From assembly GCF_003334785.1 (NCBI RefSeq), contig NZ_QOWV01000002.1: DNA of 64,000 nt; one strand, 5' to 3'. Below are positions 38,304 to 40,855 of the stretch, piece after piece (position 1 is the first letter of the stretch; each line of letters opens with the position of its first letter). The notes under the pieces were generated by a model, which worked only from the letters and a program-made list of their open reading frames with translations, was not told the origin of the DNA and did not search any database. Made by a program: the position numbers and the translations under genes. Source of the DNA: Escherichia coli. Its GTDB lineage: Bacteria; Pseudomonadota; Gammaproteobacteria; Enterobacterales; Enterobacteriaceae.

Positions 38304-39719
38304 ATGAAAATCAAAACTCGCTTCGCGCCAAGCCCAACAGGCTATCTGCACGTTGGCGGCGCGCGTACTGCTCTTTACTCCTGGCTTTTTGCACGTAACC
38401 ACGGCGGTGAGTTCGTGCTGCGTATTGAAGACACCGATCTTGAGCGTTCCACGCCGGAAGCTATCGAAGCCATTATGGATGGCATGAACTGGCTGAGCCT
38501 GGAGTGGGATGAAGGTCCGTACTACCAGACCAAACGTTTTGATCGCTACAACGCGGTGATCGATCAGATGCTGGAAGAGGGCACTGCTTATAAATGCTAT
38601 TGCTCTAAAGAGCGCCTGGAAGCGCTGCGCGAAGAGCAAATGGCGAAAGGTGAGAAGCCGCGTTATGACGGTCGCTGCCGCCACAGCCATGAGCATCATG
38701 CTGATGATGAACCGTGTGTTGTACGTTTTGCTAACCCGCAGGAAGGTTCTGTTGTTTTTGACGATCAGATCCGTGGTCCGATCGAGTTCAGCAACCAGGA
38801 ACTGGACGATCTTATTATCCGCCGTACCGATGGTTCCCCAACCTATAACTTCTGTGTGGTTGTCGATGACTGGGATATGGAAATCACCCACGTTATCCGT
38901 GGCGAAGACCATATCAACAACACGCCACGCCAGATCAACATTCTTAAGGCCCTGAAAGCGCCGGTGCCGGTTTACGCGCACGTTTCTATGATCAATGGCG
39001 ATGACGGTAAAAAACTGTCCAAACGTCACGGGGCAGTCAGCGTAATGCAGTATCGTGATGACGGTTATTTGCCAGAAGCACTGCTGAACTATCTGGTGCG
39101 TCTGGGCTGGTCCCACGGCGATCAGGAAATCTTCACTCGTGAAGAGATGATCAAATACTTCACTTTGAATGCCGTCAGCAAATCTGCCAGTGCGTTCAAC
39201 ACCGACAAGCTGCTGTGGCTGAACCATCACTACATTAACGCGCTGCCGCCGGAGTATGTTGCTACTCACTTACAGTGGCACATTGAGCAGGAAAATATCG
39301 ATACCCGTAACGGCCCGCAGCTGGCTGATCTGGTGAAACTGCTGGGCGAACGCTGCAAGACGCTGAAAGAGATGGCACAGAGCTGCCGTTATTTCTACGA
39401 AGATTTTGCTGAGTTCGATGCCGACGCCGCGAAAAAACATCTGCGTCCGGTAGCGCGTCAGCCGCTGGAAGTGGTTCGTGACAAACTGGCCGCGATTACT
39501 GACTGGACCGCTGAAAACGTTCATCACGCTATTCAGGCGACGGCGGATGAGCTGGAAGTGGGTATGGGTAAAGTTGGTATGCCGCTGCGTGTCGCCGTAA
39601 CCGGTGCGGGGCAGTCTCCAGCACTGGATGTTACCGTTCACGCAATTGGTAAGACCCGCAGTATCGAGCGTATCAACAAAGCGCTGGATTTTATTGCTGA
39701 ACGCGAAAATCAGCAGTAA
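38304..39719 (+). CDS. gltX: Glutamyl-tRNA synthetase
   Basis: 471-aa ORF ([29 protein letters not shown]...), class I HVGG and KLSKR motifs. Confidence 0.97.
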
Positions 39720-39739
39720 TTAGCGTGTAAAAAGATAAA

Positions 39740-39769
39740 CGGCAGGAGATAATATCCTGCCGTTTTTTA
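39740..39769. terminator. Intrinsic terminator between convergent gltX and yfeD
   Basis: CGGCAGGA-GATAATA-TCCTGCCG followed by TTTTTT. Confidence 0.8.
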
Positions 39770-39770
39770 T

Positions 39771-40163
39771 TTATGCTGATTCGTCAATATCGAGACGGGC
39801 GAGGAAATTGCGAATTCCTTCACGTGACAAAAATTGCGCGACTTTTTCCTGCTCAATGTCTGTCATATTATCTATCGCGTTGATGATTTGTCGATACGCC
39901 GGGGCGCGTGCTCCAGGAGCGTATTCAGCAATTCTCTCTTCAGCTTCCATCAACATTGGTGTGTTATGGAAGGCTGGCGTGTTCTGAATAAACTCGCAAA
40001 CTTGCGTATCGACCAGAATAAGTCTGGCACGACCGCCTTTCACGCCGGGAAATTTTTCCGTTTTCCAGCCTTTTTCTCTGATCCAACGGTTAACAGTTTG
40101 TTTAGCCACACCGAGGCATTCAGCCAGTTCTTCGGTGGTCATTTTATTGCGTAATCTTTTCAT
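39771..40163 (-). CDS. yfeD: Small putative DNA-binding protein YfeD
   Basis: 130-aa ORF; paralogous to adjacent yfeC. Confidence 0.85.
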   Translation of the reverse strand: MKRLRNKMTTEELAECLGVAKQTVNRWIREKGWKTEKFPGVKGGRARLILVDTQVCEFIQNTPAFHNTPMLMEAEERIAEYAPGARAPAYRQIINAIDNMTDIEQEKVAQFLSREGIRNFLARLDIDESA

Positions 40164-40164
40164 A

Positions 40165-40509
40165 TTATTTGCTATCGCGAATCCCTAAGCGTTGTAACAA
40201 TCCGATAATCCCTTCCCGCAGAAGCAAGGATGTAAACTGTTTTTGTTCAACTGGCGTCATCTCTTTCGCCAGTGTCACCAGCAATACTTCAAGCGGCGCA
40301 TCACCAGAAAGGGCAGGCGCTTCTCCCTGACCTTCTGGACGTTCAGCATTGCGAATATATTCACGAACCTGTTCATTGACGTGAACCAGTCGGGCTTTGC
40401 CACCCTGGACGCCAGGTTTTGGTGACGTTGTCCAGCCTTCCTTGCGTACCCATTTATTAATGGTCTGGCGGCTATAGCCGGTCAGTCTGGCAAGTTCATC
40501 TGGTGTCAT
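40165..40509 (-). CDS. yfeC: Small putative DNA-binding protein YfeC
   Basis: 114 aa from ATG at 40509, which has an AAGGAGAGG RBS (MTPDELARLTGYSRQTINKWVRKEGW...). Confidence 0.85.
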   Translation of the reverse strand: MTPDELARLTGYSRQTINKWVRKEGWTTSPKPGVQGGKARLVHVNEQVREYIRNAERPEGQGEAPALSGDAPLEVLLVTLAKEMTPVEQKQFTSLLLREGIIGLLQRLGIRDSK

Positions 40510-40744
40510 CCTCTCCTTGAACATAACAATTCCCTGAATGTATGTGGGTCTATTAGTAGTTCATTTTATAACACCACTTTACAGGAAACCGTGACATGAA
40601 TAACTACTGAATGCGAGCGGTTTTCCAAAATTGTTCATTTGCCTGATTTTTCAGCGATTGAAACTACACGTTGCAATTTGCCGTTGACACATTCGGGCGG
40701 AATTCATATGATGCCGCCCGTCAACTCGACAAGCTTTACGTGAC

Positions 40745-40820
<76 letters not shown>

Positions 40821-40829
40821 AATTTCCAA

Positions 40830-40855
40830 CCCTCGCTGCAAAGCGGGGGTTTTTT
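40830..40855 (+). terminator. Intrinsic terminator after tRNA-Ala
   Basis: CCCTCGC-TGCAAA-GCGGGGG followed by TTTTTT. Confidence 0.7.

Follow-up and report, generated by a model that had tools for sequence, protein, structure and literature searches.

A conserved tandem pair of paralogous DNA-binding proteins, YfeC and YfeD, beside gltX in Escherichia coli

Two short genes lie head to tail between gltX and a tRNA-Ala gene in a 64,000-nucleotide stretch of Escherichia coli DNA (the window), a chromosomal segment presented in the reverse of the K-12 orientation. Their products, YfeC and YfeD, have been named both as transcription regulators and as a toxin-antitoxin pair. The locus raises the question of what these proteins are, how they came to stand side by side, and whether they act on DNA separately or together. 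We hold with moderate confidence that yfeC-yfeD is a two-gene operon of co-expressed, translationally coupled paralogous regulators whose DNA specificities have diverged.

Gene layout and full-length paralogy

The upstream gene, yfeC (40165–40524, minus strand; 119 amino acids from the ATG at 40524), and the downstream gene, yfeD (39771–40163, minus strand; 130 amino acids), were defined from the open reading frame list and from matches to Pfam family PF07037, yfeD also by its BLASTP match to YfeC. On one side, gltX (38304–39719, plus strand) is convergent with yfeD; on the other, beyond yfeC, lies the gene for tRNA-Ala(GGC) (40745–40820, plus strand), followed by pdeA. The first-pass annotation had named gltX and tRNA-Ala as neighbors and had separated the two genes by a single nucleotide, and both statements are exact: the yfeC stop codon, TAA, occupies 40167–40165, one T follows at 40164, and the yfeD ATG occupies 40163–40161. 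The two peptides that it quoted are found verbatim in the translations. The region is matched in all 5426 complete E. coli genomes, the RefSeq annotation being yfeD plus yfeC, and an Rfam scan of the locus returned the tRNA only.

The same annotation had ended the pair at 40509, which is an ATG internal to yfeC and the K-12 start of a 114-amino-acid protein (MTPDEL). Comparison of sequences favors the start at 40524 over this annotated one, because the MFKER extension is kept as M[FLI]KER across genera and because the upstream ATG is the sole possible start in single-copy relatives, where the internal methionine is isoleucine or valine (WITP, WVTP). RefSeq PGAP records already give YfeC as 119 amino acids.

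BLASTP aligns residues 4–129 of YfeD with residues 2–118 of YfeC, with 48 identities in 127 positions (38%), 55% positives, and an E value of 3e-27. The alignment spans the C-terminal region as well as the helix-turn-helix (HTH), and, with the last 40 residues also conserved between the paralogs, the similarity is more than that of two generic HTH domains. Both proteins cover PF07037 from end to end (model positions 1–122 of 122), YfeD with residues 8–129 (E = 1.1e-63) and YfeC with residues 6–118 (E = 4.5e-51); this family, formerly DUF1323, is that of the YfeC-like transcription regulators. The proposed homology is therefore borne out by the pairwise alignment over the full length of the proteins. 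A tandem duplication, the other part of that proposal, is upheld by full-length paralogy within one Pfam family and by single-copy relatives at the same gltX-adjacent position. Both genes and the family are already catalogued, and the paralog pair as such is not new.

The tRNA genes around the pair are fewer than in K-12. One tRNA-Ala(GGC) stands at 40745–40820, where K-12 has two (alaX, alaW); two are likewise found in each of the ten complete genomes that match best, in which the matching span is longer by 115 bp. At 37891–38045 there is one tRNA-Val and a tRNA-Lys, as against valU-valX-valY-lysV in K-12. Either the arrays have contracted in this strain or tandem repeats were collapsed in the assembly.

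Duplication history and divergence of the copies

A profile search of 1.84 billion cluster representatives gave 237 matches at E ≤ 1e-3, about 25 of them full length: PF07037 is a very small, chromosomal family centered on the Enterobacteriaceae. From a scan of one genome per species, which found 275 relatives, we examined the loci of the best 80, drawn from 80 Enterobacteriaceae species. All 80 of these best-matching loci carry yfeC followed directly by yfeD, and the pair also occupies this locus in Cedecea, Cronobacter, and Franconibacter. Across all genera examined, the neighbors are gltX, tRNA-Ala, and pdeA. A single copy, convergent with gltX, was found in Chimaeribacter (Yersiniaceae) and in a metagenomic contig (L087). 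The survey of one versus two copies that had been suggested as a check on the duplication thus yields a pair in 80/80 Enterobacteriaceae species and one copy in these two relatives.

In a neighbor-joining tree, first copies, second copies, and single-copy relatives separate. Bootstrap support is 98% for a core YfeD clade running from Escherichia to Klebsiella, Enterobacter, and Kosakonia, 66% for the first copies, and 30% for the second copies as a whole. The simplest reading is a single duplication in place, which this tree resolves only in part; separate duplications or gene conversion are possible in Cedecea, Atlantibacter, and Entomohabitans. On the simplest reading, the duplication would have occurred beside gltX in an ancestor of the Enterobacteriaceae, with the upstream copy, YfeC, keeping the ancestral sequence. 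The single-copy protein of contig L087 has the YfeC states, and YfeD is therefore the derived copy.

The two copies have diverged at different rates. Mean identity to the E. coli protein is 76% at the YfeC position and 56% at the YfeD position, and of 3160 species pairs, just 32 show greater conservation of YfeD; its rate of evolution is about twice that of YfeC. At six alignment positions, conservation reaches at least 90% within the YfeC clade and within the YfeD clade, but with a different residue in each. Four of these six lie at or near DNA-contacting parts: the recognition helix differs at K24/R26 and the wing at Q40/K42 and K43/R45, and the fourth is S34/E36. On our reading, the downstream copy evolved faster and fixed substitutions at DNA-contacting positions, with the result that YfeC and YfeD now bind largely different sites.

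Enterobacter sp. BIGb0383 (L050:3986–5126) has three tandem members, yfeC and two of the yfeD type, with 4-nt overlaps; here the fast-evolving copy was duplicated again at a later time.

An origin from a mobile element was considered and rejected. A tblastn search of 50,697 phage genomes found no homolog, and the match to phrog_4151 (E = 7e-9) is remote. The 13 matches labeled as plasmid include megabase-sized records that are mislabeled chromosomes, and the smaller records, each carrying two places, are read as chromosomal fragments. The family profile also matches long proteins of 300–1300 amino acids (P0292, P0294, P0296, P0300, and others), in which 5–13 repeats match only the first ∼30 residues (the HTH) and which are unrelated to the full-length family.

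A Mu-type winged helix with a C-terminal hairpin

AlphaFold2 models of YfeC (12-sequence alignment, pLDDT 72.7) and YfeD (61-sequence alignment, pLDDT 78.0) agree with each other. In these models the N-terminal domain runs strand, helix, helix, two-stranded wing, helix. It is followed by a flexible, disordered linker of 12–25 residues that is modeled with low confidence and is poorly conserved in the alignment. The chain ends in a helical hairpin, formed in YfeD by residues 88–98 and 102–123 with a pLDDT of about 90. Within the hairpin, M, E, L, R, G, R, and L are invariant between the paralogs, and both contain the motif REGI.G.L.RLGI. The hairpin is a putative oligomerization element. A whole-chain Foldseek search gave no significant match (E > 0.03, TM ≤ 0.37); matches to known folds were confined to the N-terminal domain, and the fold search returned no specific structural match for the hairpin.

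The N-terminal domain belongs to the excisionase-like winged helices of Mu type and has the same fold as the Mu-type HTH domain of MuA (I-alpha) and the Mu repressor. With hhalign, the family profile matches MuA 1–80 with a probability of 95.1% (E = 3.1e-8, 40 columns, MuA residues 4–45) and Mu repressor c (Repc) with a probability of 85.8% (E = 5e-6), and the sole phmmer match in the PDB is 1tns, MuA domain I-alpha. The alignment with the Mu-type winged HTH (MuA, 1tns; Repc, 1qpm) takes in roughly the N-terminal 45 residues of YfeC and YfeD, and the common features are a W/M-x-[ST]-P-x-E start, a GW after the recognition helix, and a wing with GV(K/Q)GG(K/R)A. UniRef labels orthologs as “HTH Mu-type domain-containing protein.” The Pfam PF02316 HMM by itself is weak (E = 0.048), and a homolog search for building a Mu-type profile returned mostly frameshifted fragments, so that a profile-profile test added little. 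The likeness ends with this domain. Unlike the Mu proteins, YfeC and YfeD are stand-alone chromosomal proteins of about 120–130 amino acids, outside any transposase or prophage context, and their C-terminal hairpin is unrelated to Mu.

We also considered whether the C-terminal helix might be a displaced helix 3 of MuA I-alpha, an idea that stems from an E. coli look-alike (PVEQK..LLLREG versus PVEAK..LLLRQG). The match scores 1.9 bits and is equaled by 5 of 300 shuffles, and the AlphaFold2 model already places helix 3 at residues 53–61; this reading was rejected.

Other families of similar topology are more distant. The excisionase model TIGR01764 scores 27.7 and 18.7 bits on the two proteins, under its curated cutoff of 28.8. 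Compared with excisionases and AlpA-type proteins (Pukovnik Xis, 4j2n; TorI, 1z4h), YfeC and YfeD are twice the size and have an extra conserved domain; they also differ in having no nearby integrase or attachment site and in binding many chromosomal sites. With the MerR family they have the general winged HTH topology in common, seen as weak structural matches to BmrR, SoxR, and TipAL, but the Pfam MerR_1 model gives E values of only 0.32 and 0.24, and both the long antiparallel coiled-coil helix and the effector-binding domain of MerR proteins are missing. The RefSeq product name “MerR family” for YfeD reflects fold-level similarity only. BldC of Streptomyces and RacA of Bacillus, small proteins with MerR-like DNA-binding domains, have no detectable sequence relationship to the pair; BldC, unlike YfeC and YfeD with their hairpin, has no C-terminal module, and it binds as head-to-tail multimers.

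Expression, DNA binding, and mode of action

The junction TAA-T-ATG (40161–40167, minus strand) is a probable site of termination-reinitiation. Most of the genera sampled have an intergenic gap of 1 nt (range −20 to +41). A Shine-Dalgarno sequence precedes yfeC in 80 of 81 species, and no usable one precedes yfeD in 67 of 81; the median duplex energies are −4.3 and +0.2 kcal/mol, respectively. Because of the 1-nt gap and the usual lack of a Shine-Dalgarno sequence before yfeD, we infer that yfeD is translated through termination and reinitiation at the end of yfeC. Such coupling would have both proteins made together at a set ratio.

Upstream of yfeC, an extended −10 element, TGtTATAAA (40565–40573, minus strand), was read from the sequence. 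An alignment of 82 distinct Enterobacteriaceae upstream regions has TGnTATAAA as an almost invariant element, and it is a candidate yfeC promoter element; the region has no good −35 for yfeC, and a strict two-hexamer scan missed the extended −10. At the other end of the pair, a bidirectional intrinsic terminator (39737–39765) with an 11-bp stem, 6 G-C pairs, and T-runs on both strands is common to the convergent gltX and yfeD.

Strong conservation across genera marks the 220 bp that separate tRNA-Ala from yfeC, which also contain the tRNA promoter, TTGACA-17-TATGAT, on the plus strand. A conserved block, TTCAATCGCTGAAAAAnCAnGCAAA (40640–40684), lies between the −35 of the tRNA-Ala promoter and the yfeC promoter and may serve the former as an upstream activating site or a site of the Fis type. 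In addition, the arms of a 7-bp inverted repeat, AGTAGTT...AACTACT (40602–40608 and 40555–40561), stand 40 nt apart and flank the putative −10. Across genera the upstream arm is kept, and most have a single mismatch in the downstream arm; the repeat may be due to chance.

DNA binding in vivo by YfeC and YfeD rests on published ChIP-exo, which lists 50 rows for YfeC and 43 for YfeD together with MEME motifs for both (Gao et al., 2021; PMC8464067). The YfeC motif was published as a “TTC-rich inverted repeat,” and RNA-seq of a yfeC deletion gave 205 differentially expressed genes, the direct targets being mostly repressed by YfeC (PMC8464067). In RefSeq, YfeC now carries the name “DNA-binding transcriptional dual regulator.” The peak lists of the two proteins have one identical peak, with the same start, at the 5′ end of sfsB and are otherwise disjoint. 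Many of the peaks fall inside genes, and the lists do not add up to a physiological regulon. The first-pass annotation had described the targets as poorly defined. In view of the published maps and motifs this no longer stands for binding, but it does for physiology, where no coherent regulon has been established; the distinct, well-defined regulons that would have told against its account are likewise present by half, as largely distinct binding maps.

We re-derived the motifs by a simple EM procedure on the K-12 sequence under the strongest published peaks (16–20 peaks). The YfeC motif, AGTTTCCGGAAACT, is palindromic (log-likelihood 38 versus 20–27 for shuffled sequences), and the YfeD motif, TGAACTTACT, is non-palindromic (45.7 versus 26–35); both are rough, with coordinates converted between genome versions and a low information content of 7–10 bits. 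The motifs differ, which fits a diverged specificity of YfeC and YfeD. The ChIP-exo strains carried C-terminal 8-myc tags (PMC8464067). Because tagging yfeC could affect the expression of yfeD, part of the apparent separation between the two peak sets may be artifactual.

Considered together, these data are consistent with our preferred reading, in which YfeC and YfeD would be low-specificity transcription regulators, YfeC mostly a repressor according to the published data, that act independently rather than jointly. Independent action is the less secure part, in that co-retention, coupling, and the common motif of the C-terminal hairpin would suit a hetero-oligomer equally well. In an obligate YfeC/YfeD hetero-oligomer, the C-terminal hairpins would pair, coupling would set the ratio of the subunits, and the relevant DNA sites would be composite. 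Such an assembly could account for the loss of neither copy in the at least 80 species examined and for a yfeD without its own Shine-Dalgarno sequence 1 nt behind yfeC. It would also accord with a hairpin that is conserved between the paralogs and confidently modeled as an isolated hairpin, with the identical start of the sfsB peak in both lists, and with half-site cores that are alike (GGAAAC and GAAC). We nevertheless think it unlikely, though still a live alternative, given that the designs used for tagging and deletion probably disturbed the partner gene. Apart from about 1 common peak among 43–50, the ChIP-exo lists are disjoint; the YfeC motif is palindromic, as a homodimer would predict; and single-copy relatives indicate that the ancestral protein worked alone. 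Moreover, deletion of yfeC has phenotypes though yfeD is strongly up rather than lost, and we found no reports of a YfeC-YfeD interaction. Were the hetero-oligomer real, the published single-protein ChIP-exo maps may miss real targets, because the C-terminal tag sits at the yfeC-yfeD junction or on yfeD. An extension of this idea, that a hetero-oligomer fixed by coupling is a domesticated, Mu-repressor-like, two-subunit regulator of the nucleoid-associated type specific to the Enterobacteriaceae, strikes us as less likely still.

A different possibility, about which we are doubtful, is an autoregulatory circuit in which YfeC represses the yfeCD promoter and YfeD is released only on inactivation of YfeC. 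It draws on the rise of yfeD mRNA in the yfeC deletion (log2 4.3, padj 5e-133, ∼20-fold; Dataset S6, PMC8464067), which could reflect autorepression or read-through from the cassette; removal of the cassette is unstated in that paper, so read-through could explain the rise. It draws also on a conserved block upstream of the promoter (40576–40632, minus strand), found by position weight matrix (PWM) and alignment, with two weak sites resembling the YfeC motif, and on a conserved TTTCCnGTAAA that abuts the −10 element. The first site, TTTCCTGTAAA (40576–40590), is conserved across genera but reaches just 7.5 bits with the YfeC PWM (40576–40589), which is not significant; the second, AATTTTGGAAAACC (40619–40632), reaches 10.4 bits against a background of 0.19 sites per kb but is not kept in other genera. 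The block is a candidate operator only: neither the YfeC nor the YfeD PWM yields a promoter site that is both conserved and significant, and an autoregulatory operator was rejected on these grounds and on the position of the published peak. One ChIP-exo peak is assigned to yfeC (PMC8464067), but after coordinate conversion this peak (NC_000913.2 2516052–2516085) falls at 40798–40831 of the window, where it covers the tRNA-Ala (alaX) 3′ end and the first part of the tRNA terminator; the yfeC promoter is several hundred bp away. Highly transcribed tRNA genes are common ChIP artifacts. Gene labels are loose in other rows of the table of Gao et al. (2021) too, for example chaA and rplU/ispB.

The toxin-antitoxin label goes back to RASTA-Bacteria (2007), which predicted yfeD/yfeC as such a pair with “high confidence,” and was repeated in a 2018 TraDIS paper. 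A type II system would suit two short neighboring genes with hardly any gap between them and an HTH in one product. Here, however, YfeC and YfeD are each other's paralogs, and DNA binding in vivo is reported for both; Pfam, NCBIfam, and PADLOC gave HTH-type matches only and no toxin family; strains of K-12, K1, and EHEC survive deletion of yfeC, even with yfeD up 20-fold; and the locus is a syntenic core rather than mobile. We regard this reading as highly improbable, reject it on the paralogy, the absence of a toxin domain, and the viable deletions, and suggest that the old label be dropped.

A further practical point is that yfeD is probably disturbed when yfeC is given a C-terminal tag or deleted with a cassette, and the published regulon and phenotypes should be read with this in mind. 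Deletion of yfeC is cited in PMC8464067 as altering eDNA release, and was published as reducing both small-intestine colonization and lethality of E. coli K1; in EHEC, the deletion left LEE expression unaffected. The genes, the Pfam family, and the binding maps were already public. What is added here is the age of the duplication, the retained gltX-adjacent position, the approximately two-fold rate asymmetry, the fixed changes in recognition helix and wing, and the Mu-type origin of the DNA-binding domain, along with the conserved translational coupling suggested by the gene junction.

The sole peak common to both proteins (L096; K-12 3334932–3334961) lies at sfsB (nlp), whose product is itself homologous to the Ner repressor of phage Mu; as YfeC and YfeD have a Mu-type HTH, the coincidence is a curious one.
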